Shown here piece after piece: positions 11,339 to 47,393 of a DNA stretch of 64,000 nucleotides. The stretch is taken from the NCBI GenBank assembly GCA_010015585.1, contig ML975180.1, one strand, 5' to 3'. Source of the stretch: Eremomyces bilateralis CBS 781.70 (Eukaryota). A program made the translations under genes and the position numbers. Position 1 is the first letter of the stretch, and every line of letters starts with the position of its first letter. Below the pieces are notes generated by a model, which did no database searches, was not told the origin of the DNA, and worked only from the letters and a program-made list of their open reading frames with translations.

Positions 11339-13019
11339 TTTAAGCTCCAAAGAGATGAAAACAAACCGTAAAGAGCGACAAGATACTCAAACGAATGTTC
11401 CAACCAGAGTATTAGCGAAAGTAGGTCGGTTGGACCTTATGGCGACGGAGGGGAGCAGCTTGCAAACGGACAGCATTGCGGGTATCACGATATAAGTAAC
11501 GATTGCCCCATTGTTAGGTTATGATGGTCCAATTGATCGGCAGAGTTGTTTACAGTAGAGGTTAGACAAGCCTGTTGTATCACGGTCAGATCAAGCACAG
11601 ATTCGCCGTGATGGAGATTGACGATGCTGGAAACAGGGATTGATTGTCTACATTCATGTTTCGCGTCGACCCGGCCGGTCTGTCATCCTTGAACGGCCAA
11701 TTTGAGGGAATGCAGCGAGCTATCTTCCAATCCATCGGATCAAACGGCGGGATCGTTGTCTCATGGCGGGTCCAAGTAGGATTTGACGATGGAGAAAGGA
11801 GGATCGTCAGGGCGGCGCGGGTTGCAATCCAGGGGGGTCATGGAATGCCTTGTGCAAGGGGCTGAGATTCAGCAAATCACACGTCCTGACGCGAATGCCC
11901 AACCACCAACCTCGTCCTTCGGCGCGAGTACCAACAATCCACATCTTCCGACGAATTCGCGTGTATGTACTACCCTGCGAAGGTACAAGGACAAGGCGTT
12001 GTGGTTTGCTCAACAGCCGATGATGCGTTATTAAGAGTCTATGCTCACCTGCCATTTCTGGCTGGTCTTCTCTCGTTATCAGATATCAGGATCCATAGCG
12101 GGCCACAAGCCCACAACCCTCCGATGGTCCATGTCTCCAGTTCATGGCGCAAGGCGCAAGCGGGATTAAGAAACCAAACAAGCTTCGTTTCCAAGGAAGC
12201 CTAAACAAGCTTATCAACCGACAAGCTGCATTGGCACCGCTAGATCCAAGGGCTAGGATAGGGGCCGTCAAGAATCCTCCTCGAAGACCACGGGTACGCC
12301 TTCAGCGACGTAGGATGCGGAAGGTGTTCAAGATACAGTATGCAGAGATTTGCCGATCCAAATCTCTACCCGAGTGGATGCTGAAGGGCTTCCCCAGAAA
12401 AAGAAGGTAGTATGGCTGATGAGTGATGACTGAAGTAATGGCAGATGGCAGATACCCATGCCCTCATCATCCGTCATGGAGTCTATACTCTTGAGGAAGT
12501 GGAAGAATCGTACGGAATAACGTTGTGTGCTACCGAAACTGCCTCCAAAAACGGAGGTTTCTGATGCCATTCTCTGCGGTCTTTCCGCCTAGGCGAAACG
12601 CCCTCGTTTCGTTACCGGCGGCGCCCAAAACTCCCTGCTACAGTGCCAAAGCCCTGCACGCGCTCAGGAGTGTGGTTCTACAGACCAAACTTGGGGGGAT
12701 CCGATTTTGGAATTCCGTCCCTCAGTTTTTCGTTTTTCGACCTTCGCAACTGCTATGCCTCTATGCTAATTTCGGAAGCATGATGGTGTCAAACGCTATG
12801 GCTCCGCTACAGAGCCTCCCTTTGCCTTCGCACATAATAACCAATGTCGAGGCCCGTCGCTCGATGGATCGTTTCGTCGTACCCGTTTCTGTTCTCTTCT
12901 TTGCCTGGGCGCTCGTTATTTCGCTGTTCCAGACCGATCTCTATTATCCAGCTGCCTTTGTTAAATTGCCCTTCGCTCTCTTACGGGACCGCTCTCTACA
13001 TCGATCTCCGAGACCATCG

Positions 13020-15426: not shown

Positions 15427-18400
15427 TCACAAAGTAAGTTCCATGGTCATAACTCTTCCAGATGTATATCCGAAAGCAACAATACCCCCAGAAACAGCAA
15501 TAATGCTTGGCCGATACTCGCGAGGAAGCCAAAGGATCCGCTCGGTATGGCTACTTACCCAGTTGTCATTGACAAAGATAGAAGACGGATATTGTAGACT
15601 GGTTACACCTATACCACCAGAGAGAGGGAGTAAAATAGGCAAGGATCCACGGTCTGTCTGGAGAGAGGTACCATCATCGGAGAAAGAGAGAGCGTAGACG
15701 ATGTCTCCCATATCATGCGTTTGCTGTAGCACGCCCGACCCGACATCCCACAGCTTGACCGTCGCATCGTCCGATGCCGACGCCAGCGTCTTGCCGTCCG
15801 GAGCGAAGGCCACGGCGTAGACCCAGTGCGAATGGCCCTTGAGCGTCTGCTGTAGCGTTCCGGACCCGGCGTCCCATAGCTTGACAGTCCTGTCGTTCGA
15901 TGCCGACGCCAGCGTCTTGCCGTCCGGCGCGAAGGCCACGGCGAGGACCGAGCCCGAATGGCCGTCGAGCGTCTGCTGCAGCGCGCNNNNNNNNNNNNNN
16001 NNNNNNNNNNNNNNNNNNNNNNNNNNNNNNNNNNNNNNNNNNNNNNNNNNNNNNNNNNNNNNNNNNNNNNNNNNNNNNNNNNNNNNNNNNNNNNNNNNNN
16101 NNNNNNNNNNNNNNNNNNNNNNNNNNNNNNNNNNNNNNNNNNNNNAGCGCGCCCGACCTGGGGTCCCACAGCTTGACCGTCCAGTCGTTCGATGCCGACG
16201 CCAGCGTCTTGCCGTCCGGCGCGAAGGCCACGGCGCGGACCGAGCGCGAATGACCCTTAAGCGTCTGCTGAAGCGCGCCCGACCCGGCGTCCCACAGCTT
16301 GACCGTCCCGTCGTTCGATGCCGACGCCAGCATCTTGTCGTCCGGCGCGAAGGCAACGGCGAGGACCGAGCCCGAATGGCCGTCGACCGTCTTCTGCAGC
16401 GCGCCCGACCTGGGGTCCCACAGCTTGACCGTCCAGTCGTTCGATGCTGACGCCAGCGTCTTGTCCGGCGCGAAGGCCACGGCGAGGACCGAGCCCGAAT
16501 GGCCGTCGAGCGTCTGCTGCAGCGCGCCCGACCTGGGGTCCCACAGCTTGATCGTCCNNNNNNNNNNNNNNNNNNNNNNNNNNNNNNNNNNNNNNNNNNN
16601 NNNNNNNNNNNNNNNNNNNNNNNNNNNNNNNNNNNNNNNNNNNNCCGTCCGGCGCGAAGGCCACGGCGAGGACCGAGCCCGAATGGCCGTCGAGCGTCTG
16701 CTGCAGCGCGCCCGACCCCGCATCCCACAGCTTGACCGTCGCATCGTCCGATGCCGACGCCAGCGTCTTGCCGTCCGGCGCGAAGGCCACGGCGTAGACC
16801 CAGCTCAAATGGCCCTTGAGTGTCTGCTGCAGTGCGCCCGACCCGGCATCCCACAGCTTGACCGTCGCGTCCTCCGATACCGACGCCAGCGTCTTGCCGT
16901 CCGGCGTGAAGGCCACGGCGTAGACCCAGCCTAAATGGTCCTCGAGCGTCTGCTGCAGCGCACCCGACCCGGCGTCCCACAGCTTGATCGTCCTGTCGTT
17001 CGATGCCGACGCCAGCATCTTTCCGTCCGGCGCGAAGGCCACGGCACAGACCGATTCCGAATGGCCGTCGAGCGTCTGCTGCAGCGCGCCCGACCCAGCG
17101 TCCCATAGTTTAATCGTCCCGTCGCTCGATGCCGACGCCAGCGTCTTTCCATCCGGCGCGAAGGCCACGGCGCGGACCGAGCGCGAATGGCCCTCGAGCG
17201 TCTGCTGCAGCGCGCCCGACCCGGCGTCCCACAGCTTAACCGTCGCATCGTCCGATGCTGACGCCAGCGTCTTGCCGTCCGGCGTGAAGGCCACGGCGCG
17301 GACCGAGCGCGAATGTCCCTTAAGCGTCTGCTGCAGCGCGCCCGATCCGGCGTCCCATAGATTGACCGTCGCATCGTCCGATGCCGACGCCAGCGTCTTT
17401 CCGTCCGGCGCGAAGGCCACGGCACAGACCGATTCCGAATGGCCGTCGAGCGTCTGCTGTAGCGTGCCGGACCCGGCGTCCCATAGCTTGACCGTCCTGT
17501 CGTTCGATGCCGACGCTAGCGTCTTGCCGTTCGGCGCGAAGGCCACGGCGAGGACCGAGCCCAAATGGCCGTCGAGCGTCTGCTGCAGCGCGCCCGACCC
17601 GGCGTCCCACAGCTTGACCGTTCTATCGCTCGATGCCGACGCCAGCGTCTTTCCGTCCGGCGCGAAGGCCACGGCGTAGACCCAGCCTAAATGGTCCTCG
17701 AGCGTCTGCTGCAGCACACCCGACCCGGCGTCCCACAGCGTGACCGTCCTGTCGTTCGATGCCGACGCCAGTGTCTTTCCGTCCGGCGCGAAGGCCACGG
17801 CGCGGACCGAGTCCGAATGGCCCTCGAGCGTCTTCTGTAGAGCGCCCGACCCGGCGTCCCACAGCTTGACCGTCCTGTCGTTCGATGCCGACGCCAGCGT
17901 CTTTCCGTCCGGCGCGAAGGCCACGGCGTAGACCGAGCCCAAATGGCCCTTGAGTGTCTGCTGCAGCGCGCCCGACCCGGCGTCCCATAGTTTAACCGTC
18001 CCGTCGCTCGATGCCGACGCCAGCGTCTTTCCATCCGGCGTGAAGGCCACGGCGCGGACCGAGCGCGAATGGCCGTCGAGCGTCTGCTGCAGCGCGCCCG
18101 ACCCGGCGTCCCACAGCTTGACCATCCTGTCGTTCGATGCCGACGCCAGCGTCTTTCTGTCCGGCGAGAAGGCCACGGCGTTGACGCGGTCCGAATGGCC
18201 CTCCAGCGTCTGTATTACCGCATGCCATTTCTCCTTAACCCTTGGCGAATTTCGTATCCATCTAGGCATACAGTTTACGAACTGCTGTCTTATTATACTT
18301 ATTGTCGGTGCGAATACGAGGGCACTGCAGTACGTCTGAAGGGGAGCCTGCTCGATAATATGTCGGTTATAGAGCACGAACCGCTTCGCATCATGGATAA

Positions 18401-20217
18401 ATTTCGAGAGACTAGGACAGCCACTTAACTGGCCAAATTGTTAGCGAATACTCTGTAATATGCTGTAGATAGTTATACTAACGGAAGTAAACGACCCCAA
18501 AGATGTGATAGCATAAACTCCTTCCGACACCATTCCCATCCATCCAAGGGCCTCGAGCCAGTGAAGAAGATGTTCCTGTAAGAATTGATGCACTTGACCA
18601 TTATCGTAAAGTCGAGTACCGCTTTTCTGGAGGTGCTGGATCCAGTAAAGACATGCATACTGGACTTCAGGAGGTAAACTTTGTGTAACTCGGCGTCTCT
18701 CGGCATTGGCTACAAGCATGCCGGGGGCATTCACGCAACATATATCTTGCTTGAGTGATAACGACATAAGCTGGATACAGCTGTTGGTTAACACTTGGTG
18801 GGCTTTCTTCTCGTCTACCCATAAGTTTGGATCTCCGCATCTCTTTTCATCGAGGAGAAAGTCGCGAAACGAAGGGTGATGCAGACGAAGTGGATATATG
18901 TCGACCTTGGGAATGTTTAGAATCGCATGAAGATCCCTGAGCACCTGACCAATATTTTGCTTGGGGATATTAAGTAGCCTGTGAAGCGAGCCGGCAGAGA
19001 GCGGGGAGAAGAGCACCACGATGCTTCCAAGAATATGACTTTGCATGCCATACAATGCTTCCTTCTCTTTCGCTAAGTAACCTAACCGGATAGATTTCTT
19101 TAGGACGGTAGTATAGAGCTTATTAAGGTGTACTTCTGGATGCTCTTCTGGTGCAGGAATAGAGGTACTACCTTCTAACAAAGTTTGCACTCTTTCGTCT
19201 GCGAGATAACCTTCTTGAATGAACCGACAAGCGGTTGCGGCCCAAATGAACAATCCCCCTGCAGTCTGGATCAGGCTTTTGATAATCTCTTCGCCTGGCC
19301 AGGAGTCATCTAGAGAGTGCTCCTGTCCAATGAGCTTAAGATTATACTCGAAGAAAACAGAGATATCGTGATCTACGATAGAGGGTGATATGCTGTGAAG
19401 TACAAAATCCTGGATATTCGCATTCGGTAGCTGACGGAATCCATATCGGATTGGAATTTCAGGTCGGCTTGTCAGCAAGACTCGTAGTCGAACCGTCTTT
19501 AACAATCGAGCTTCAGCTAAGAGGTGTATGATAATCCGGATGTTATTGTCACCGTCGCACTCATCGAGCGCATCAACGACAAGAATGTACGAGGACTGGC
19601 CACCGTTTTCACCTAGCTTTAATAGTGGACCTAGGATAAGTTGCTGCCACTGGTCACGGAGGGACTGGCTCGCAATGTCGCGGTGCTCTATGATGGCATC
19701 GCAAATGTACTGTTGGAGAGAGGGTATGTTGTTCGCCAGCTGCCACGCAATGCTCGTGATGAACTTGCCTGCATGGTTGACATCCCCACCGCCGCGCGAG
19801 AAGAAGAAGCTGGCTCCGAGATGCTTCTCATCGAAGCCTCTGCGGGCGACAGTGCGCGCAATTGTCGACTTGCCCGTGCCGGCCAAGCCGTTCAACCAGA
19901 AAATAGAGCGCCCATCTTGCCTGTCAGCCCAGTTGTATATCTCTTGGAGGAGGTCGACGCGGGTATCGGGAAGGCAGGCCGGGTCGTGTTGTCGCTGGTA
20001 TGTATTGAACGGCGCGTCCTTTGCGGTAGGGAGGGAGTTGAGCACATCGTTCAAGTCTAGATTGCCAGTAAGCTTCCTGCTGCTTTGAGGCCATAGCCAG
20101 CTAAGCACCCTCACTTTTGCTGCTCCCAAAGTTCACAGACCCATGGATAGTGCCAGCCACGACCTGCGAATTCTGGTTGGCGGACACACCACTAATAAGT
20201 TGAGTGCTGCCTGACAT
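15427..20217 (-). CDS. NACHT-WD40 NLR (NWD/HET-E-like); exons ~20217-20115, 20056-18483, 18428-15427; two N gaps in the repeats
   Basis: P-loop [14 protein letters not shown], Walker [31 protein letters not shown]; at least 18 near-identical 42-aa WD40 repeats; introns with GT/branch site/AG keep the frame. Confidence 0.93.
15720..18210 (-). repeat. Tandem 126-bp WD40 repeat array with high internal identity
   Basis: Unit [42 protein letters not shown] repeated; assembly gaps fall inside the array. Confidence 0.97.
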
Positions 20218-21380: not shown

Positions 21381-22464
21381 TTAATAACGTGATTGAAGCC
21401 CATTTCGCTCTGCAATCTCTGCCATCCTGTCAGGCATAGATTCGATATAGGAATCGATCTCATGTTGTGGAATCTTGTTCCATTCATCGATGATCGCATC
21501 CTTGAGCTCTCCCTGAGTTTTGGGATGCCGTTTACGCTGTTTTAAGCGCTGTTTTAGGATCCTCCAGACGTTCTCAATTGGGGACATATCTGGAGGTCCG
21601 CATACCAAGGAATCCCCCATTCAGACATGAACTTTTTCACCCTATTAGTCTTGCTCCGGGTTCCGTGGCACCCATCATTTTCAACCTCGAGGAGGAAGGG
21701 CCTCCCTTCCTTCCGAAAACGCTGGAAAAGGGGGACGATATAGGGCTTCAAGATCTCGTCGCGGTAACGGGTCATATTGAGTCCAGATTCGCGACCCCCC
21801 GGCCTCTCCTTTTTGTGGTATTCGTAGAATACGAGGTGGCTCTTATATCCCATCCCTACGGCACCCCAGGCGTGGAGGACATTTTTTGGTCTCTTTTTCC
21901 TATGCTGAATGCAATCAGGGCAATACCGCTCCTCTTTCCCGCGGATTACCCACTTTGAGTTCTCCATACCAAGATGGAAATGGGCCTCATCTGAGAAGAC
22001 AACGTATCGCCAGAGGGGAGTCCAAAGGCGGTGGTCCTGAGCGAATTGGTAGCGCTTGATCCGGTTCTCCTCCTTGATATACGGTTTTTGACAGGCACGG
22101 CACTTCTGGAATCCCTCACGCTCAACGGCTGATTTAAGGGTCTGCCAATGGCATCCGAGCTTCCAAGATCGCACTATCTCCTCAAATGACTCGATTCGCC
22201 GGTCGTAATGACCGACGAGCCACCGGATAATAGCCTGGATCTGTTCAACCAGGAGACTCCGTGGGCGACCTCTTGCGGTCCCGACCCTGCCTTATTAGTT
22301 CGCCTAGAACTCCTAGCTCTTAAGATACGATATCCTGTGGCCGTTGAAACACCACATCGTTTAAAAATATCGTTATTTGAGAGCTCTGGGCAATGCCTCC
22401 GGAGGGTCCGAACTTCCTCCCTTTCTGGGGTTGACCGCACGTGACTTTCGGGCGCTGGGGACAA
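21381..22464 (-). pseudogene. Tc1/mariner (DDE_3) transposase, frameshifted
   Basis: N-terminal HTH (GVSTATGYRIL), VVFSDEAHF, EVENDGCHG, PPDMSPIENVW spread over three frames. Confidence 0.85.
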
Positions 22465-30358: not shown

Positions 30359-31507
30359 AGCTGCAACGGGACGCAGGAGACGAGAAAACGAGCAGACACG
30401 GAATCACCCACTTGAACACGAGGACGAAAATGCTTATAGAAGCCATCGAAACTTCCGGCAAATTTATTTAACCTTATCTAACCGAGCCATGGCACGGGGT
30501 AAGCGGATTGCTCGTGTCTAGATGCACAGCAGAAAAGTCCGGATAGCTGAGCTGGGGAATATCCAGGCGATCTTGCCATTCTGGTTGAGTAGAACATGGT
30601 TGGGCATCCAACCACCGACCTCGAACATGCTATTCGCACTGCACGTTTGGATTATGCATCCGCCAAGAGGGCTCGTCGCACGCTACTAACATCGGGATGT
30701 CGTGAAACTGGTCGTAAACACCATGTGATCCACAAGGAACGTCCTTTGATGAGCCCTACGTCTCCCGCTATCGTCTCGGTTGGCAAACGAAGTTACGGAG
30801 GTCCAGTATGCTGCTGAATCGGTGGATATCTGGGTTGGATACATCCCCGGACCCCGACCCCGAAGGTCGAAAGTCCCCGATTAACCGTAGCGTACCCGGG
30901 GTTTGATTCGTGATCTTGGAGGCGCGATAGGCCGATGGCCGATAAGTGATAGGAGCGGCAGTTGTCTTTGTCGGAAGGAATTATTTCTAGGCTACGTTCG
31001 ACATAACTGATTGGCAAAAGGATTGAGACTGGATCCAATTTGGCAATTGCATGCCGATGTGGGGTTTTAGTTTGAAGATCTGCATATATCAGCCGACAAA
31101 GCTTGTCTAAGCTTGTTCTTACCCCAACCGCTGCCCAGTTTCGGCGCACCGGATCCTACCGTAGTTAGCCATAATTGGCGATCATTCAGTTTCAGCAAGC
31201 TTGAATAACTGATATTCCGCAGAGTGTCCGCCCAATTCCTAATATCAGCAAGGGAATGGATGTGGAGCATAGGAAACATTGGGTTCTACAATTGGTTCGA
31301 GTGAGTCAATCCGACAAGGCGCTCGAGTGCTCGGCGCGGTCATACGAAACTAGTCTCAACGGCGACCTGCGTTAAATGGCTCGCATCTCGGGATATCTTC
31401 ACACGAGCTGTCAGCTCCAGCGTGGATACGCTGTACTACTTTCCCAGCCAGCAAATTTCGAGCAAGCTACTACTTCTAGTAAACGGGATCTTATCAGGCA
31501 TCAGCTC

Positions 31508-32590
31508 ATGGCAGAGTCTGCTGGTGACCACTCCGAGACCGGAGATTATCGGCTCATATCGAAAGCAGACGCGGAAGCATTTGCAACTAGGCTGCTGGTG
31601 GCCAACGGAACACCAACGTCTCACGCCGAACATGTTGCCGCATGCCTGGTCCTCGCCGACCTGCGCGGGATCGAATCGCATGGGATCAACCGCCTCATCC
31701 CGTACCTGATCCGCGTACGCGCAGGTCTCCTCGACCCGGCCGCCGAGCCCATCCTCAAACAAGTCACGCCGGTGGTAGGAGAAATTGACGGGAAGAATGG
31801 CTGGGGTTTTCTGACCGCCAAAGCCGGTATGCAGCGGGCGTGCGACATGGCGCAGACGTTCGGAATCGGCATGGTGTCGGCGCACCACAGCAACCACTTT
31901 GGCATGAGCGCGTGGATTGTAGAGCAGGCCATTGAGGCGGGGATGATGTCCCTCGTCTTCACCAATTCCTCGTCGGCGCTCCCCGCGTTCGGTGGTCGAG
32001 AGAAGCTGCTAGGTGTGAGTCCTATTGCCGCCGGAGCTCCTGGAGGGAACCATCCGCCGTTCATTCTTGACTTCGCGCCAAGTGTCGCAGCGAGAGGCAA
32101 GGTTCACAAAGCGCTGAGGCGTGGCGAGGAGATCCCGTTCGGCTGGGCGTTGGACGCCGAAGGGAGGGACACAACCGACCCGGCAGCGGCTCTCGAGGGC
32201 ACGATGCTTCCGATGGCCGGCCCTAAAGGCTCGGCGTTGGCAATCATGATGGACGTGTTCTCAGGTGTTCTCTCTGGGTCTGCGTTTGCTGGGGAGGTCG
32301 TCGGTCCATATGACAAGACGCGAGGGCCGGGGGAAGGAGTGGGCCACCTTTTCGTGGCGATGAAGCCAGACCTCTTCGTTAGCGGGGAAGAGTTCCGCCA
32401 CAGGATGAATCATCTGTATGAGAGGGTAACCGGGAGCAAGAAAGCAGACGGAGTCGAAAGGATATACTTTCCTGGTGAAGTTGAGGGGGAAAAGCGCAAG
32501 CAAAGGGAAGTGTCCGGAATCCCTTTTGCACACATTGAGGTCAACAGCCTCAATGAAGAAGCGAGAAAGGCTGGGGTGGAAGGGATCTAA
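31508..32590 (+). CDS. Ldh_2 family (malate/L-lactate/ureidoglycolate-type) dehydrogenase
   Basis: ADLRGIESHG, SNHFG, LGVSPIA, GPKGSALA, RIYFPGE; start taken at MAESAG. Confidence 0.9.
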   Translation: MAESAGDHSETGDYRLISKADAEAFATRLLVANGTPTSHAEHVAACLVLADLRGIESHGINRLIPYLIRVRAGLLDPAAEPILKQVTPVVGEIDGKNGWGFLTAKAGMQRACDMAQTFGIGMVSAHHSNHFGMSAWIVEQAIEAGMMSLVFTNSSSALPAFGGREKLLGVSPIAAGAPGGNHPPFILDFAPSVAARGKVHKALRRGEEIPFGWALDAEGRDTTDPAAALEGTMLPMAGPKGSALAIMMDVFSGVLSGSAFAGEVVGPYDKTRGPGEGVGHLFVAMKPDLFVSGEEFRHRMNHLYERVTGSKKADGVERIYFPGEVEGEKRKQREVSGIPFAHIEVNSLNEEARKAGVEGI

Positions 32591-32690
32591 GATGGGCTTA
32601 TTATGATAGGACTTAAGAGGGATTACCGGTAGATAACACCCCCGTAATTGAGGAATATAATTAGAGAATAGACTTCTCAATACGAAGTAA

Positions 32691-35197
32691 CGTGTGCTAC
32701 CGAAATTGCCTCCAAAAACGTCCGTTTTTGGAGGGTTTTCCGCTCAGGCGAAAAGCTCTCGTTTCGTTAGAGTAATTACTGTCGATGCCCCAAAACTCCC
32801 TGGCACAGTGCCAAGGCCTTGCACACGCTCAACGCGTCATCCAATTTTGGACTTCCTGTAACGACGCTACCACTATGCGCCAAAATGGACACCAACACGA
32901 CTAAACCAAAGTCAATGTTGATTGTGGTAATTCGGTATATCAATATAAGGACCTTCTGGTCAGGCATGCCCTACTCGGTAGGTTCCCCAAGCCATACCGT
33001 GACACTTCTAAGTTCTAACTCTCAATTTTCAGTTTTTCGACCTTCGCAATTTCTATGCCTCTATGTTAGTTATAAAAGCATGTGACACGATCGGGAAAGA
33101 AGTTGATTCGATTTCCGTAAACTCGTCAAACTCAAGCTACAGAAAAGAGGAAAAGAAGAGAAGTCTTAGAGTGCTGGTGGATTATTTACATGTTGGTCTC
33201 CTGTATTCACTCTTCTTTCCTAATTGGGAATCATATCAACACAACACGTTACGAGAGTAGTCAAAGGGAGACTACTTCGTCTCAGTGTTCTTCACATAAG
33301 CCTTGATACTCGCTGCACACCGACCAGCCAGGAGGGGCTATCGGCCGGGGGTAGCATCCACCCAGCCGGTGGTAATGAGCAGCAGGGCCGCGATGTAGGT
33401 TGTCATGACAGCCAAGCCATGGCAGGGTACCGCGACGCCCGCCACGTGAATCCCAATTAACATGTCCGAGATCAGGAACAGCCCCCCGCCCAGTGCCACC
33501 CGCGAGGAGACACCAGTCGCAGTGATGGCCATCAGCGCAAGAGCGAGGCTGTACACGAGCACCGGCACCGCCAGCGGACCCAAAGGCGTCCACAGCAGGA
33601 AATTCGCTACCGCCCAGCAGGGAACGTAGATCAGGAACGCGGTGACGGGAGGGCTACGATGGCGCAAGAACGCGGTGGTGAAGGCAATCTGGGTGACGAG
33701 GAAGCAGCCCATTCCGACGAGGAAGGCCGTTTCGCCGCCGACAAGTAGCGCGATATCGCCACCGCACGCGAGGACGAGACCGATGGCGACGCGGTCGATG
33801 GCCCGGTTTTCCCGTAGCACGTACACCAGAATGAGCAGCACCGGGGCGAGAAGGGGTTTGGACAGCCATTGCAGGGCGATTGAGTTGACGGCGATGCCGA
33901 TCAGGTCGATGGCGGACACCGCGAGGAATGGCCGGAGGAGCTGGAGGGTGGTGCCGAAGTCCTTATAATCGGGACTTGGCTGGATAGCCGAGTGCGGTAC
34001 AGGAGTCTTTCGAGCCATACTTGGATATTGTAACGATGACACCTTGGATCACTCAGTAAGGAATTTGAACAGGTTGATTCGCTAGAATTAAGCTAAAGAA
34101 GAAAGAAAGGAAAGAGGGGGAGGGAGGTAGAGCGAGAGAGAGAGATTCATACAATACGCCCGTCAGGCCTCTTTGCGAGGCCCATGTGGGGAACTACATA
34201 GGCTGACTAATTACATGCGTTGGTGCCTTGTGGCCTTGTGCCTCCATTTTCTATCTTCGTTCTTCTAACTTCCATAACTATCTGCTTCTAACATGGGGAA
34301 TAGGAGGGAATGGTAGAAGGAATGAGATAGATATCCATGGTGGGTGAAATGAAAACACTCAACATGACCCACCACCACATGACCTCTCATCACGTGGTCA
34401 GAACTCCTGATCTGATCTCTACGGGAGCCACCTCATCGTGGGATCGTGGCAGATATTGGCTAGAGGAAGAAAGACTAACACGGAGATCCGGAAAGATATG
34501 GTATTAATGCTACAATGCCCCTTTTCTTACTATATTGATCTGCGCCACGGAAGCAAAGCCTTGGTGCAAGTCACGTGGCATGATCTGCACCAGCCACAAC
34601 CACTCCATTGCTCTGGGACGTTCTCTTACATTAAGTGTAGAATAAAGAGGGATCCTAGGTAGGGCGATGTGATGCTACAGTAAACACAAGATATCTGCAT
34701 TGGTATCACATGACTAGATCACATTAGGTCACATGGCCTTAACTATTTTACCCCTGATCTGTTGTCCTAGCCATACAGCCTTACTGACCCCTCAAAGACC
34801 AGTCTATCGTCGTAATGCAGTGTGCAACTATACGGAATACAGAATCAATTGCTCTCCTAATATTTGCACGTGAATCACTGAAGCATACCATTTTGTATCA
34901 CACTAGCCCATTCCTTGCGTGCTGTGACAGGCGAGGGCGAGAGATTCAGGCGGTGTTAATGGCGCGTGTTAAGGGGCCGATCGGTAGGCGGAATAAAATT
35001 GGTACGGGGCAATGCAAGAGGCAAAGGCAATCTGAGGTATGGAAATGGTAGAAGAGACAGAAGAGGGTTATTGGGAGTTAAGAAGGGGACAGGCGGTGGT
35101 ATTTATGTTTTTTGAAGAGATGATGTTTGAACGAGGAAAACAGCGTTATGCTCGATGCGGCAGCGCTAAATCGAAAACGGAAATTTAGTGGGACGCA
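32691..35197 (+). mobile_element. Captainless (derelict) Starship relative, ~2.5 kb
   Basis: 32681-32830 and 33021-33082 are homologous to the left end of element 1; 35117-35207 is homologous to its right end (24374-24471). Confidence 0.65.
33338..34018 (-). CDS. YhhN/TMEM86-family lysoplasmalogenase, intronless
   Basis: SKPLLAP, GLVLACGGDIALL, FLVGMGCFLVTQ, YSLALALMA, GGGLFLISDMLIG, VMTTYIAA; multi-TM. Confidence 0.9.
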   Translation of the reverse strand: MARKTPVPHSAIQPSPDYKDFGTTLQLLRPFLAVSAIDLIGIAVNSIALQWLSKPLLAPVLLILVYVLRENRAIDRVAIGLVLACGGDIALLVGGETAFLVGMGCFLVTQIAFTTAFLRHRSPPVTAFLIYVPCWAVANFLLWTPLGPLAVPVLVYSLALALMAITATGVSSRVALGGGLFLISDMLIGIHVAGVAVPCHGLAVMTTYIAALLLITTGWVDATPGR

Positions 35198-35479
35198 TTT
35201 ACGGTAAATGAGACTATGTCATCCTGACTGGAGTTTCTGACCTTCATGGTGTGGCTGATGAATCCTATGGATAGGGGTCTGGGCTTGGCATCAATTCCGA
35301 ATCTTTCTGTTGTTGAACCTGACATTTGTTCGTCTCCAAAGCATATCTATGACCCTTGAAGGCTGCGCAACAATACTACAACTATACAACTCGGTACTAT
35401 TCCGGTTATCCCATGAATTGAACCTTCATGTTGTGAGCAGCGTGCTTGCGATGAGAATGAAAGTTCAAAGCACGATAAG

Positions 35480-36525
35480 ATGAAGCTCCTGACCAAATCG
35501 CGCCAACTGGCGCATCGACGTAAGTTGCGAGCAACTTGCCCCTCAAGATTCAAGATTGCCTCTAACTATGCTAGTCCCTCTCTGCCAATGCAGAGCCTTC
35601 TCACTTTCCCTTTCCCGGCAGTATGCCTCTGCCAAACCCGCGCCTAAATCGCCAACCTCCTCGAAAGTGAAAGAGTCGACGAAGACACCGTCGATGCCGG
35701 AAATGCCCACTCTCGGAGACTTAACTGCCACGAATATCTTCGAGATCGACCGAAAAGAGCGGGCCGAAATCGAGAAGCAAGAGGTGAAGCCCGACATAAA
35801 TCGGACTGCGATGATGGCCGCCACCGATCCCGAGCCGTGGAAACGCAGACGATGGGAGCGGAAGATGGTGATCCGCGACATCACGCGACGGGGACGGATG
35901 TCCAAAGGGGAGATGCTGAAGCGCACCGAACGAGAGCACTCGGCCAAGACCCCAATGTTGAAGACCAGCACGAAGAAGCTGATGTTCCTGGCGCGCCAGA
36001 TCGCGGGGAAGCCCATCGAGGAAGCGATCCTGCAAATGCGGTTCAGCAAAAAGGGGAAGGCTGTCCACGTCAAGGCGTTCCTCGAGTATGCCCGCGATCA
36101 AGCCATCGTGTACAGAGGTATGGGTCTCGGCAAGGTCGGCGCGGAGGGCGAACCGGCCAAAGAGCCGGCCAAGATCGTAATCAAAGATAAGGACGGCACG
36201 CGGCGGAAGATCGACGACGCGAGCTCGATATATATTTCCCAGGCGTGGGTTGGTCGGGAGCCTTACGGGACGGATATCGATTACCGGGGTCGTGGACGAG
36301 CGTTCCGTCTCCGATTACCATACGCAAGTGAGTGAAACCATGTCGCATGCACCGTTCCCTATGGAATTCTAACGCGCTGCTTCAGGACTATACGTGGTGC
36401 TTAAGGAGGAGACCACTCGGATACGTCTAGCTGCCGAACGACAAAGGAAGAGGGACAATCGCACATTATGGACTCAGCTTCCTGATCGTCCAGTGACGGG
36501 TCAGAGTCAGTACGTGCTGTGGTAG
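35480..36525 (+). CDS. MRPL22: Mitochondrial large-subunit ribosomal protein uL22, 3 exons
   Basis: RRWERKMVIR, TSTKKLMFLARQIAGKPIEEAILQMRFSKK, YISQAWVGR, YRGRGR; last exon VVLKEETTRIR...QLPDRPVT. Confidence 0.93.
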
Positions 36526-37416
36526 AGAATTTTTTGATCATGCTTGCATTGTACAAAACTGTTGTATATATGACTGGAGAGGGACTATGAAATTCCATGC
36601 GATCGTCAGGCGTTCTTGTTCGTCAAACGACAAGCATCTCAAGCATATTGATACTCATAGATGGGTTCCAGTGTCGTTCTAAAGGCGGAAGTCTACGGCT
36701 TTCACAGGTTTCGCTTAGTTCTTCAGGTAGTTTCGCTAATTGAAGTTTTGCTGCGAACTACACCTAGCAAGCGCAGCCTAAATGTCGTATTGTATCCGTA
36801 AACCCACCATATTCCCAAAAAGAACAAATCGCTTCTAGTCGTTTCCTTTAGATGCAGTGTTAGATCTCCAAGTTCAAAGTCAATCTCAAGCCAGCGCCCG
36901 CTCATTGGTCGATCTTCCAACGCCCCCGTGTTTTGCATCCATCTCGAAGCCTCGGCCGCGCCAGGGCCCCCCTGCCAACACCCCATATCTTCAATCAAAC
37001 CCCGCTTCAGATTCATTAAAACCTCCCTGAACATGCGCACTTGACCTGTCACACCCTCTGCGAATGGACACCGGTGCCAGCATGTGTAACGACGAACCCC
37101 TCCAGGTGGTTGGCGCGGAGCAGAGCCGAACGGCGTGGTGGACCGAGCATGGGGAGATCTGGCCATGAGAGTAACTTCGCTAACACTTTGCTGCGGAGTA
37201 ATGAAGTGTGGAGAGGAAGGATACGCAGCGTGGCATCTAGAGGCTTATTAACGTTTGGATCGTATAGAAATCTAGTTTTTGACGCTTCAAACGGTTTTTC
37301 TACAAGTTCTTCAACTCTACCGTGTCGCTTTTTGTCGCTTTTCCATCGTCTATGTTTACCCAAAGTCTTGAACTCCCCTACGACACCCCGATTCCGTCCG
37401 AGTGACACCGATCAGG

Positions 37417-38492: not shown

Positions 38493-39525
38493 TTACGATC
38501 TGAATATCCGCTCGAAGCCCTTCTCGTCTGGCTGAAGCCAGTTGCACTTGTCGTAGTCGTTTTGACCCTCGATGAGGTGGAACGTGTAGATGAACCGGCT
38601 TTTTGCGCTCGTATTCCTCTCGCTCTTGTGCAGGAGGTTCCCATGGATCAGCACCAAGGTGCCCGCTTTCACCTCCCCCACCGTGTACTCTTCGGTGCTT
38701 CCAACAGCGGCATTGCTGTCCAACCCAAGCCCTTCCGGGAACCTCTCACCCTCGTTCGCCGTAAACCCCGTCCCCGCCTTCCCTTCCTCGACCTCCCCCA
38801 TCCGCACGAATCGCTTCTCCACCGCCGCCCGCTTGTGGCTACCGCTGGCAAAGCTCAAGCACCCGTTCCCAGCGACGGCATCCTCCAGCGCATACCAAAA
38901 CCCAACCGCGCTGGGAGGGTCGGTGTACAAAAAGGTCGAGTCCTGGTGCGGGGGGACGGCGCCGCCGATACGCGGCTGTTTGCAGATCACCATACTCTGG
39001 AGGCACCGCGGGTCGCGAAACGACAGACTTTTCGCAATCGCCGCATTTTCGGGCGACAGCGTGATACGGCGGAAGGGCTCTGAGAGGACGTGGAGCGCAT
39101 GGCCGATCTTGTTGATCGACGCCGGGACGGGGCCGAGCAGTTCGCCCGACGGGGAGAAAGCGTCTTGAGCAGATCAGCGTCCGTCTGTACGCTCCGAGGG
39201 AGAACTACGAACCCTCTTCGAAGAAGAACCGGATCTTGTCACCGCTGGTTAGAAAGTAGTCGTCGCCCACATGGTCGGCGTCGCCTTCGCCAGTGGAGAA
39301 CTTCGTGCCGGGATGATCTTTGAGTCCGGTTGTGCTAAACTCATCTAGCATTTCCTGTGTCTCGGAAAGAAGCTCATGGACAGTCTCCCCGGATAACGCA
39401 CCGGGGATGATTAGGTATCCATTCTTGTCCCAAAAAGCCAACTGCTCTTGTGATAAGCCGTCGGACAGCGAGCCATGATTCCCACTCGAGAGCGAGCCAG
39501 TTACGGAGGGAGTAACTGCCGCCAT
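38493..39525 (-). CDS. Phytanoyl-CoA dioxygenase family (PhyH/PHYHD1-like), 2 exons
   Basis: FWDKNGYLII, SGDKIRFFFEE, INKIGHALH, PPHQDSTFL, HGNLLHKS. Confidence 0.93.
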
Positions 39526-44942: not shown

Positions 44943-47393
44943 TAGGGCACGCCGTCCTCATAAAGTCTTCATGAAATCTAACCCGATTTAGCTCTAGCGC
45001 TCATAAATGCCCTCATTAATACTAGCCTAATTAGGTATAGCATTACCCAAATATTAGTGCCTGAGGCACCCGCAGCAGTATTTGCAGGAGATCCTAATAC
45101 CCGTTCTCATAGCTCTCTCCAACTGTATAAGTCTTGTAATCGACATCTTCATCACTCAAATGACCAAACCATAACAGTAATGGACGTGTATGTACATTAG
45201 GGCTCGCCGTCCTTATAAATACTAGCCAACTTGGTTCCTACCTTCAACTGCTTTTCTTTGTTAACGTATTTGAAGCTTTAATCCTAAAGATATTGATTCT
45301 TTTCGTGTTTACAATAGCATAGGATTATCTACATGATCTTCTCCCGCCTCAATAAGGCCATCTTCAAGCTCAATATACTCCTCCTCTAAGTCCTCCGCTG
45401 CATTTTCAATCTCGCTAGCATGGTCTCTTCCCTTCCTATCAAATACTCTCTGATTGATATACACGAATTGTAGCATATCAACATTCGTACCCTCAAGGCA
45501 TGAACGGAGCTTGTTCTGTAATAGTTTGAGTATAGAGAAGGAGCGCTCACAGGGCACTGAATTGCAAGGAGTTGATGCCAGTCTCAATGCAATAGGTCCA
45601 ACTGCTGGGGCGAATGTGGACGCAATCTGCCAGAAAGTCTTAATCGTCTCTTTATGCTCCCATATAAAGTGTCCCATATTGAATCGTCCTTCACGCCCCC
45701 GAAACTCAATGATCTGAGTTATAGCATTCTTATAATCCACCCCCATCCTCTTTAAGAAGTTATTAAGCTTCTCCCAAACCTGTGCGGCTGTATGGAATGG
45801 TATTGAGTCGTCGCCGATCGTATGTGGGTTAAGAAGGAACGCAGCAATATGAATATCTGTCGTTTGACGTTCAAATCGAGACTGCAGGAGTTGTGGGATC
45901 TTTGAGAGGTCATCGATATCAGGACGTTCTTGAACGATATTGGCTAAGTGCTGTTGAGCTTGCTTCCAGCTAGTCACGACGTGGTGAAGCTTTGCAGAGT
46001 CCGATTCTGACTGCTTAATAAGGCTATCGATCGGTTCCAAAATGTGGAGGATGAATTCGATGTCAATCCAGAATTGTCGATCCCAGACTACCGCCTTAAG
46101 CTCGTTTACCGAATCGCCTACCTCGTCTGGTAGGCTGTTGAAGTACAGTAATAAGGCCGGTTGTGCTCGCTTGACAGACTTGAGCATTGATACTTGAGTA
46201 CCCCATCTAGTAATAACAGATAAGGTAAAGGAGTATACCTTCTGCATTGTACTTTGCATATGCTCTCGGAGGATACCTAGTTGCTTTGGAGAGGAGGTAA
46301 ATGCCGTAACAATAGCCTGTGCTTTTTGGAACCGTTCTTCGAACCACGGGAGTAACACAATGTCTTTAATAAGGAGCTGCAAGCCGTGGCTATTGCACGG
46401 TACAAAGAATACGTGTCGAAGCTCCGGTTGCTTGCTGAGTATCGTCGCCGCTTTAAGCTGTGTAGCACAGGTGTCTGTTGTAACCGAATTGATCCGTGTG
46501 AAGTTGCCATTGCATAGTTCCTTCATGCACTTGTATAGCCACCCCGCGCTCCATTCGCCATTTAAGGTTTCGCCGGCGAGGATCTCGGATTTGATATATA
46601 AGGCGCCGTACTCTGGCACGTTGACACAGAGATTCTGGACTCGTTTCTTGCGTATGTTGTTCGACTCATCAGCAATAAGGTTGATTGTGGAGGAGCTCTG
46701 AATAATAGGCATAACTTGCTTCCGGCAACGTTCGTAGAGTTCTACTTAATTAGTGGCTGGGAGAAATAAAAGAGTACTTAAACTAACCTGGTAGAAAGTC
46801 GTTGACGATATCCTTCCGTGTAGGAGGCTTGACAAGAGGATAGAACGTGCGATAGATACGCGCGAGGTGCTTCTTCTCCTCAAAAGCATCAAGCGGTAAG
46901 GCATCCATTATGACAGCCATTGTCATATCCAACTGGATAGTCCTCATTTGTAGCGCAGAGAGCGACGGCACCCTAAGTTTCGGCTGGATTGACGTCTGTA
47001 ATTTCCCATTAAGCGTAAGGTATGGCTTGCAGCGTGTGAGGTGTGTCCGGAGGTCGGTGGTTTGCCAGGATCGTTCTGTCTTACACGCCTTACAGATAGC
47101 TCTATCTGTAGCGTAATCAAGGTGTTTTATTCGTATAAAGGAATTGAGTATTTCTACATCGGGGATGCGCCCTTTGGGGGGCATCTTAGTACGCAATTGT
47201 TCAAGCAATGGGCGTGTATATACTCTGTACATAGCCTCAATCTTCAATTCTTCATAAAATAGGCACGTTACATGACTCAGTATGATGACTCAGCATGATT
47301 AATCAGCAACGCACGAGCCCATTACTGCCACCTTTTATGAGATTCCTCTGTAATTCATCATTTAATCCAGATGAGCTCATTTGGACTGCCCTA
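44943..47393 (-). mobile_element. hAT DNA transposon with perfect 8-bp TSD
   Basis: TTCCCAGC at 44935-44942 and 47394-47401; ends TAGGGCA... / ...TGCCCTA. Confidence 0.92.
45309..47184 (-). CDS. hAT transposase (DUF659-type), apparently intact, one intron at ~46786-46742
   Basis: Zn finger CKAC...HLTRC; IADESNN, TTDTCAT, PCNSHGLQL, ITRWGT, CNSVPCERSFS; splicing gives in-frame FLP-ELYERCRKQVMP. Confidence 0.9.

Follow-up and report, generated by a model that had tools for sequence, protein, structure and literature searches.

The window, a 64,000-nt stretch of Eremomyces bilateralis CBS 781.70 on contig ML975180.1, contains a gene of the YhhN family that lies between fungal genes and whose nearest named relatives are bacterial. 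The gene is on the minus strand and comprises a leader and a core homologous to yhhN of the actinomycete genus Micromonospora:

33338..34018, minus strand: YhhN coding sequence (CDS), complete and intron-free, 226 codons plus stop, predicted to encode a polytopic membrane protein (PF07947)
33342..33941, minus strand: the presumed transferred core, ~600 nt with nucleotide homology to Micromonospora yhhN, from bacterial codon 2 to the fungal stop
33944..34018, minus strand: leader of 25 codons, MARKTPVPHSAIQPSPDYKDFGTTL, with no bacterial counterpart

The ATG-to-stop open reading frame (ORF) occupies 33338-34018 on the minus strand and its product is 226 aa long. An earlier note on this DNA had described an intronless gene with a compact product of ~225 aa, and both descriptions fit: this is a single ORF, and because its product is colinear with the bacterial proteins we take the gene to be without introns. 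The three motifs from which that note had read the protein's family style are also in place, QWLSKPLLAP at residues 50-59, GPLAVPVLVYSLAL at residues 147-160 and GVSSRVALGGGLFLISD at residues 169-185. PF07947 matches the window protein with an E value of 8.1e-31 (107.6 bits against a cut-off of 25.6), and the alignment places residues 49-218 on profile positions 1-181 of 182, so that the match is full-length. Rfam and tRNA scans of 32000-35500 returned no match.

The gene had also been called visibly more GC-rich than its flanks, with codons ending in G or C. The first part stands, as the CDS has a GC content of 0.628 against 0.44 and 0.46 in the two adjoining intergenic stretches, but every coding stretch in the window is GC-richer than its spacers, and the GC content at third codon positions (GC3) is not distinctive when set against neighbouring genes. 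Over the full CDS it is 0.775, which ranks second among the 17 frames measured and lies inside their range (0.38-0.784); the other high frames are PhyH (0.784), NSUN2 (0.752) and WD40 (0.739). Within the gene, GC3 is 0.797 in the core and 0.60 in the leader. YhhN is thus at the top of the host range and no outlier, and composition alone would not have flagged it as foreign. GC content as a marker of foreign origin was rejected as uninformative, given that the gene's GC3 falls within its neighbours' range. The frame with the highest GC3 in the window, PhyH, encodes a phytanoyl-CoA dioxygenase of 226 aa at 38493-39173.

Relatives of the protein are, where named, bacterial throughout. A word-seeded search of 5.8 billion proteins gave 147 matches, and our counts rest on the best 120 of these, 119 of which are not the window's own protein. 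An organism is named for 89 of the 119, and all 89 are Actinomycetota: 82 Micromonospora, three Actinoplanes, two Polymorphospora, one Cryptosporangium and one Dactylosporangium. Micromonospora matches reach the top identity, 70% over ~89% of the query. No fungal protein is found among the 89 organism-named matches of this word-seeded search, while the same database yields many named fungal proteins for the neighbouring genes Ldh_2 and ISWI. Because the neighbours retrieve many fungal relatives and YhhN retrieves none that is named, we regard its distribution among fungi as patchy; a broad, vertically inherited fungal clade, which the earlier note had named as the outcome that would speak against acquisition, did not appear (0 named fungal proteins in the best 119 non-self matches). 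An exhaustive HMMER search gave 2210 matches, 8 of them at E <= 1e-30. Nine of the best representatives were looked up, and the six that fall in named clusters are all Actinomycetota (Micromonospora/Verrucosispora, Dactylosporangium twice, Planomonospora, Stackebrandtia and P0012, a Micromonospora protein). The three clusters shown as neighbours in the ESM Atlas are bacterial and labelled lysoplasmalogenase. These matches, and above all the 89 of 89 named Actinomycetota, bear out the impression that the protein is more like actinomycete YhhN than like eukaryotic TMEM86.

A FastTree phylogeny was built from 129 rows (the 120 matches and the 9 representatives), and an IQ-TREE phylogeny under LG+C20+F+G4 from 57 of these, comprising the entire nearest clade and a spread of the rest, with 72 omitted; both are trees without animal TMEM86 or distant fungal YhhN sequences. 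By its matches the protein does not group with animal TMEM86A/B, since the 89 organism-named ones and the three ESM Atlas clusters are all bacterial. In the IQ-TREE phylogeny, the window protein pairs with P0002, a protein of 225 aa encoded on a Logan contig of 1185 nt, in a clade of its own (support 100/99), and the sister of the pair is P0003, from Micromonospora sp. NPDC023633 (99/83). The clades that enclose them are Micromonospora clades of four rows (99/87), six rows (96/80), 17 rows (99/96) and 20 rows (100/99), and outside these lie other Micromonospora, Polymorphospora, Actinoplanes and Dactylosporangium. The FastTree phylogeny nests the pair in the same way. Forcing the 48 bacteria of the Micromonospora clade to be monophyletic without the pair cost 38.9 log-likelihood units (approximately unbiased (AU) test, p-AU 0.004), for a group that was defined post hoc, from the tree already in view. 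A BLASTP-type search and a maximum-likelihood phylogeny together thus place the gene inside Micromonospora.

The same history can be read in the nucleotides. All seven Micromonospora loci tried by blastn align with window positions 33941-33342, at 72.3-75.2% identity over 584-600 nt and with E values of 1e-117 to 1e-133, and the homology begins at 33941, which is codon 27 of the fungal ORF. To compare codon choice, we took aligned sites at which the amino acid is the same and shuffled codons inside amino-acid classes 5000 times. Of 132 such sites, 82 have the same codon in the window gene and locus L004; shuffling gave 61.1 +/- 4.2, and none of the 5000 shuffles reached 82. Excesses were also seen with L002 (z 5.7) and L007 (z 4.5), whereas the distant Micromonospora locus L012 showed none (53 of 113 sites against 50.7 expected, z 0.6). 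As the excess is confined to the closest Micromonospora loci, synonymous sites evidently retain history, and the sub-clade that they indicate is the one found in the protein tree. Measured against the diversification of Micromonospora, the transfer is not an ancient one. The earlier note had proposed acquisition from Actinobacteria; homology, phylogeny, nucleotide identity and synonymous-codon sharing agree with it and sharpen the source to within Micromonospora, from which we hold transfer to be very probable.

The gene differs from its bacterial relatives in ways that can be laid out along the protein. A leader of about 20 codons had been suspected, and residues 1-25 indeed have no counterpart in 118 bacterial-type matches. 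This leader is hydrophilic and N-terminal, without similarity to the bacterial upstream region; in the AlphaFold2 model it is unstructured (predicted local distance difference test score (pLDDT) 66-70), with no helix before residue 21. Its start codon has A at -3 and G at +4. The window protein also has a 2-residue insertion at residues 63-64 relative to the bacterial proteins, and the Pro/Ala-rich C-terminal tail of the latter (~25 residues) is missing owing to an earlier stop codon. Leader, insertion and tail loss occur together in 2 of the 120 listed matches, namely the window protein itself and P0002, whose overall identity is 69% and whose leaders agree at 15 of 25 residues. Because P0002 has the same three derived features, the transfer would predate the split of the two lineages; the ORF appears from the two sequences to have stayed intact in both, and the gene to have been retained since transfer.

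Composition has shifted as well. GC3 in the core is 0.797 against 0.92-0.985 in nine Micromonospora genes, and compared with the 14 closest proteins the window protein is poorer in GARP residues (0.318 against 0.365-0.405) and richer in FYMINK residues (0.179 against 0.11-0.14). Codon and amino-acid composition have therefore ameliorated part-way toward the host. A new ATG with its leader, a GC3 of 0.80 against 0.92-0.985, and a colinear contig in X3, a sequencing run described below, mark the gene as domesticated. We envisage that an ancestor of this Dothideomycete took a single yhhN gene from a bacterium within the Micromonospora crown, and that the gene was integrated into a nuclear chromosome between the genes for Ldh_2 and mitochondrial L22. 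It would then have gained the upstream ATG, the 25-residue leader and the 2-residue insertion, lost its tail through the earlier stop, and drifted part-way toward the host in codon and amino-acid composition.

In the donors the gene is the last of an operon, which we surveyed in loci L001-L050. At L007 (6425-8684), a GntR/FCD regulator, an AGMO-like FA_hydroxylase and yhhN follow one another on the same strand, and the yhhN start overlaps the end of the hydroxylase gene. Of 37 Micromonosporaceae loci, 35 have FA_hydroxylase immediately before yhhN, and the same 35 have the gntR/FCD regulator; in Streptomyces and Catenulispora, FA_hydroxylase directly precedes yhhN in 10 of the 13 loci. Within Micromonosporaceae the hydroxylase is conserved at 78-93%, far better than YhhN. 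These neighbours speak, by inference, for an ether-lipid role of the donor gene. When all stop-to-stop frames of at least 100 aa from five Micromonospora loci were compared with the window, only the yhhN region matched, and because no flanking Micromonospora gene matches, we regard the event as a single-gene transfer: the fungus received only the terminal enzyme of the operon.

We modelled the protein with AlphaFold2 from a 148-row alignment. The model is all-helical (mean pLDDT 94.1, predicted template modelling score 0.88), with seven helices by DSSP at residues 21-43, 47-68, 76-92, 96-120, 125-167, 172-192 and 200-222. The TPLGP turn falls inside the 43-residue helix 125-167, whose length would suffice to cross the membrane twice; it is probably two spans, which would make eight helices in all. 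Eight transmembrane helices are described for the YhhN family (PMC9052158; PMC11994398). A PDB search by sequence gave 0 matches for the single protein and one chance-level match (E 0.4) for the profile of the 148-row alignment. Foldseek found no PDB chain at E <= 0.001, and its best hits were the seven-transmembrane chains of G-protein-coupled receptors or rhodopsins (TM-score 0.36-0.40), in keeping with PMC9052158, according to which the family is still without a solved structure.

An eight-residue active site has been proposed for the family, reportedly by Jurkowitz in 2015. Seven of the eight residues are retained in the window protein (K54, G87, D88, G177, S184, D185 and Y208), and all seven are invariant or nearly so in three alignments, A1 (12 proteins), A2 (13 proteins) and A3 (the 148 rows). 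D88 is invariant in A1 and A2, D185 in A1, and both are nearly invariant in A3; in A2, E. coli YhhN has Asn at the second essential aspartate position. Across the 12 proteins of A1, 63 columns are invariant. The counterparts in human TMEM86B, likewise of 226 aa, would be K53, G87, D88, G175, S182, D183 and Y206 in the same order, a correspondence drawn from the order and spacing of published positions rather than from an alignment with human, Legionella or M. tuberculosis sequences. Alanine substitutions at the matching positions of TMEM86B, the first glycine excepted, impaired lysoplasmalogenase activity (PMC11994398), as did D82A and D190A in TMEM86A (PMC9283435); the essential aspartates are given as D82/D190 of TMEM86A and D88/D183 of TMEM86B (PMC11994398). 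The eighth position, His104/108 of TMEM86A/B, is Gln110 in the window protein. Gln is also the rule at this position in A2, where 12 of 13 proteins have it and E. coli YhhN alone has His, and His-to-Ala mutants retained >10% activity (PMC11994398).

On its profile match, residues and model, the window protein is probably an integral membrane hydrolase of the YhhN/TMEM86 family with eight helices. Characterised members, namely rat and human TMEM86B, TMEM86A and M. tuberculosis Rv1401, with Legionella Lpg1991 also cited, cut the vinyl-ether bond of lysoplasmalogens to yield a fatty aldehyde and glycerophospho-ethanolamine or -choline (PMC3137066, PMC9052158). By analogy with them we lean slightly toward a lysoplasmalogen as the true substrate. 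Fungi, as the earlier note stated, are not generally known to make plasmalogens, and published work agrees: a survey of 53 genomes describes fungi as lacking the plasmalogen pathway, with a few exceptions acquired via transfer (PMC13012113), and PMC11225845 likewise states that fungi are not known to make these lipids. Because fungi are held not to make plasmalogens, any such substrate would be exogenous. The Eremomycetaceae are coprophilous (PMC4150071, PMC7082219) and plasmalogens are common in gut anaerobes (PMC10191378), so that gut anaerobes and animal cells are the likely sources of lysoplasmalogen in dung; the benefit could lie in removal of membrane-lytic lysolipids, in their use as food, or in both. 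Removal or use of exogenous lysoplasmalogens is, we infer, the most likely role; the earlier note had suggested use against host or environmental lipids, a proposal that stands on weaker ground than it made out.

Several points, including some in the assembly evidence given further on, weigh against this account. Besides the post hoc grouping in the AU test, the branches leading to the fungal pair are long (stem 0.57, window tip 0.29, P0002 tip 0.54, against 0.0066 for the sister bacterial tip); the long stem suggests fast change after transfer, and constraint on the gene in the fungus may have relaxed. By the Nei-Gojobori (NG86) method, the comparison with L004, the closest donor locus, gives a nonsynonymous rate (dN) of 0.22 and a synonymous rate (dS) of 0.55, or a dN/dS of ~0.4, to which we attach little weight because the donors' extreme GC3 distorts dS (pairs within the genus give 0.67-0.75). 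The fungal source of P0002 is deduced solely from the shared derived features. An NCBIfam scan of the window protein matched 0 families, and so no equivalog. The proposed catalytic His is Gln, and the match to TMEM86 residues is one of order and spacing. The literature found reports no activity for, and no assay of, a Micromonospora YhhN, and 'lysoplasmalogenase' on the records is annotation.

Much of this would be expected if the transfer was real but the gene is a passenger, expressed incidentally at best and drifting under relaxed constraint, or if its substrate is some other lipid, for example a different lysolipid, an alkenyl ether or a metabolite of the fungus; that the AGMO-like hydroxylase and the regulator were left behind in the donor fits such a case too. 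Against it, the ORF is intact in two lineages that are 69% identical, in a family with 63 invariant columns in A1, and both essential aspartates are retained along with the K, S and Y. The leader is conserved (15/25) about as much as the remaining protein, X3, a run that holds spliced mRNA, has a colinear contig of the gene, and the Gln at the His position is common to 12/13 A2 proteins. We therefore rate drift or use on another lipid as rather unlikely, and consider it likely that the YhhN gene is functional and expressed in the fungus.

The question of contamination turns on the gene's surroundings, which are as follows:

31376..32590, plus strand: Ldh_2 malate/L-lactate dehydrogenase gene, downstream of and convergent with YhhN (PF02615, E 1.7e-118)
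33133..34242, gene on the minus strand: X3 contig of 1111 nt with 0 differences or joints, covering the CDS together with 205 nt downstream of the stop and 224 nt upstream of the ATG
34100..34154, minus strand: pyrimidine-rich (CT) low-complexity tract seen in the sequence, ~80-135 nt upstream of the ATG
35355..36589, plus strand: mitochondrial ribosomal protein L22 gene, upstream of and divergent from YhhN (PF00237)

The long frames of the window include an ISWI ATPase, Cdt1, NSUN2, Get3/ArsA, a NACHT-WD40 protein, a sugar porter, a P450, mitochondrial L22, and hAT and Tc1 transposases. Ldh_2, separated from YhhN by 748 nt, has relatives that, where an organism is named among the 119 non-self matches listed, are all ascomycetes at 57-67% identity; it is an ordinary ascomycete gene and provides host context, as does L22. 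The named relatives of the ISWI frame are only ascomycetes; it is 98% identical to the protein of Eremomyces bilateralis CBS 781.70, and the matches that come next, at ~80%, are from other Dothideomycetes. For YhhN, Ldh_2 and ISWI alike, the protein's record gives a contig of 207,676 bases. The L22 gene has introns at 35520-35574 and 36328-36385, both GT..AG, whose 55 and 58 nt are skipped in an X3 contig.

Three sequencing runs bear on the junctions. X1 and X2 are DNA runs of one sample, and X3, presumably an RNA run, comes from another sample and another study. In X1 and X2, the CDS lies on a contig of 1194 nt (32898-34091) that reaches 440 nt into the AT-rich sequence on the 3' side and 73 nt into that on the 5' side, with a depth of 202 in X1 (flank contigs 237/232) and 148 in X2 (flank contigs 168/164); X1 is possibly the window's own source data, so that these two runs are not independent of the window. 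X3 contains cDNA-derived sequence, because its L22 contig has the two GT..AG introns removed, and 33133..34242 is the probable YhhN transcript, from a contig that shows neither strand nor true ends; as YhhN is intronless, this contig taken alone is compatible with DNA carry-over. X3 bins at 32887-33103, 35057-35273 and 36793-37000 are without cover, and a further run, X4, gave no contig along the window; we draw no conclusion from either.

Stitching of actinobacterial reads into a fungal contig would account for a GC-rich CDS between AT-rich flanks, for Logan unitig breaks on both sides of the gene (32898-32916 and 34031-34253), and for a hint of a high-GC homologue in X2, where single contigs follow the window as far as 33686, or from 33923 on, and pass into very GC-rich sequence beyond. 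Yet the breaks fall in a (GA)n/(CT)n microsatellite tract and dispersed repeated sequence, away from the CDS borders, the depth of the CDS contig matches that of the flank contigs, and the gene differs from every Micromonospora locus tried by 25% of nucleotides and has a GC3 of 0.80 against 0.92-0.985 in donors. P0002 shows a second organism with the same eukaryote-type gene. The chimeric assembly that the earlier note had named as a refutation was not found either: contigs from three runs and two studies join the CDS to fungus-like flanks (440 + 73 nt in X1/X2, and 205 + 224 nt in X3 of the independent study). With fungal neighbours on both sides as well, the gene is linked to native host genes and contamination is unlikely; we put chimeric assembly down as highly improbable.

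Still less probable is vertical descent of an ancient eukaryotic or fungal YhhN lost elsewhere, or its reverse transfer from fungus to Micromonospora, for which it can be said that YhhN/TMEM86 exists in animals (PMC3137066) and that the tree is one without animal or distant fungal YhhN, but against which the pair lies several supported nodes deep in one genus, itself placed among Micromonosporaceae as bacterial vertical descent predicts, a monophyletic bacterial group is rejected, only the closest Micromonospora loci show the excess of shared synonymous codons, the gene is intronless and just partly ameliorated, and the donors keep it in a conserved three-gene operon.

Other features of the locus were recorded alongside. 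The Ldh_2 frame has 404 codons from its first ATG, of which the recorded gene product (360 aa) covers 89%; a protein in ENA, P0285 (411 aa), covers 98% of the long form, and the N-terminal extension may be real, for instance as a targeting sequence. Between the YhhN start and 34242, on the minus strand (34019-34242), there are several short upstream ATGs, two with immediate stops, and upstream ORFs of ~12 and ~20 codons. The CT tract may be part of the core promoter. Loose contig ends fall at 34154/34155, at this tract, in X1, X2 and X3, and assembly graphs break there. Over 33972-34405, which takes in the tract and ~100 nt beyond, the DNA runs reach a depth of ~18,000, where ~235 is the baseline; this peak points to sequence that is highly repeated elsewhere in the genome, and the window holds no second copy of it, nor does it match an Rfam family or a tRNA.

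A dispersed repeat of ~140 nt lies at 32692-32831, 500-650 nt downstream of the YhhN stop, with a 26-nt palindrome at 32709-32734 and a diverged copy at 12525-12666 (86-97% in three pieces). One X3 contig joins 32720 to 34154 and so skips 1433 nt, the entire YhhN gene with flanks. The joint has ends TC..CA and 30 letters on its shorter side, is absent from the DNA runs and has both ends in repeats; it is probably a graph artefact. The X2 contigs that match to 33686 or from 33923 carry 255 nt of very GC-rich sequence unlike the window, and may represent a high-GC bacterial homologue among the contigs of that run. A search for transposon ends around YhhN found no inverted repeats and just four two-copy direct repeats of 14-23 nt at 74-86% identity. 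Further off, and not adjacent to YhhN, are a NACHT/NPHP3_N + WD40 gene of the fungal NLR type (16257-20132), a Tc1/mariner-type transposase frame (21554-22291) and a hAT transposase frame (45309-46745).

Taken together, a single-gene transfer from Micromonospora to the fungus, of a gene since domesticated and encoding a YhhN/TMEM86-type hydrolase, is the explanation that we favour with good confidence. Single-gene transfer from bacterium to fungus is a known kind of event and YhhN a known family, and what the window adds can be gauged against the systems nearest to it. Compared with the Micromonospora proteins (P0003, P0004 and P0006, the last from M. peucetia), the window protein is 65-70% identical over residues 26-226, and 72-75% at the nucleotide level, and shares the family-invariant residues, the Gln at the 'His' position and the predicted helices. 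It is set apart from them by the 25-residue leader, the insertion at 63-64, the lack of a Pro/Ala-rich tail and a GC3 of 0.80 against 0.92-0.985, and the fungal gene is a lone insertion flanked by fungal genes, not the last member of a gntR / FA_hydroxylase / yhhN operon.

M. tuberculosis YhhN (MtbYhhN, Rv1401; PMC9052158) belongs to the same Pfam family and has the same eight-transmembrane architecture, a likeness by description and not by sequence comparison. M. tuberculosis, too, makes no plasmalogens, and MtbYhhN acts on foreign lysoplasmalogens of the host, removing toxic host lysoplasmenylcholine and so protecting against it (PMC9052158); the setting of the fungal protein is eukaryotic, and its corresponding activity putative. 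Residues 1-30 of MtbYhhN are dispensable in vitro (PMC9052158), and the fungal leader is a non-conserved N-terminal extension. TMEM86A and TMEM86B (PMC3137066, PMC9283435, PMC11994398) are of the same family and have seven of the eight proposed catalytic residues in common with the window protein, in the same order, but TMEM86B has His108 where the window protein has Gln110, and the nearest relatives of the latter are all bacterial.

The closest precedent in fungi concerns PEDS1, FARAT and AGPS of Trichoderma, Thozetella and others, which are plasmalogen-related, patchy in ascomycetes and have few or no introns (PMC13012113). Recent transfer from Myxococcota is proposed for them (PMC13012113), again with a soil-bacterial donor and a plasmalogen-less fungal background. 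Unlike these biosynthetic genes, the window gene is degradative, and donor phylum and recipient fungi are others. PMC13012113 contains neither TMEM86 nor lysoplasmalogen (0 occurrences). Among the YhhN and lysoplasmalogenase papers listed, a part of those found, none concerns fungi, and no paper found joins YhhN, 'horizontal gene transfer' and fungi.

The case is an unusually clean one, datable and suggestive of function, in that the donor can be narrowed to one species group of a single genus and both nucleotide and synonymous-codon signal survive. The steps of domestication are directly readable, from the new start and leader through tail loss and partial amelioration to escape from the operon. 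An enzyme of plasmalogen-degrading type is now present in a kingdom without plasmalogens, which mirrors the use of YhhN by M. tuberculosis against host lysolipids and complements the recent report of plasmalogen-synthesis genes transferred to a few fungi. We propose, tentatively and with more doubt than assurance, that a coprophilous lineage uses a captured operon-end gene as the first known fungal lysoplasmalogenase, disarming or eating vinyl-ether lysolipids of dung. If its activity were confirmed, the gene would give fungi their first lysoplasmalogenase and offer a testable case of transfer linked to life in dung, and if the niche reading were true, it would be an adaptive transfer that opened to the fungus a lipid class foreign to its kingdom.

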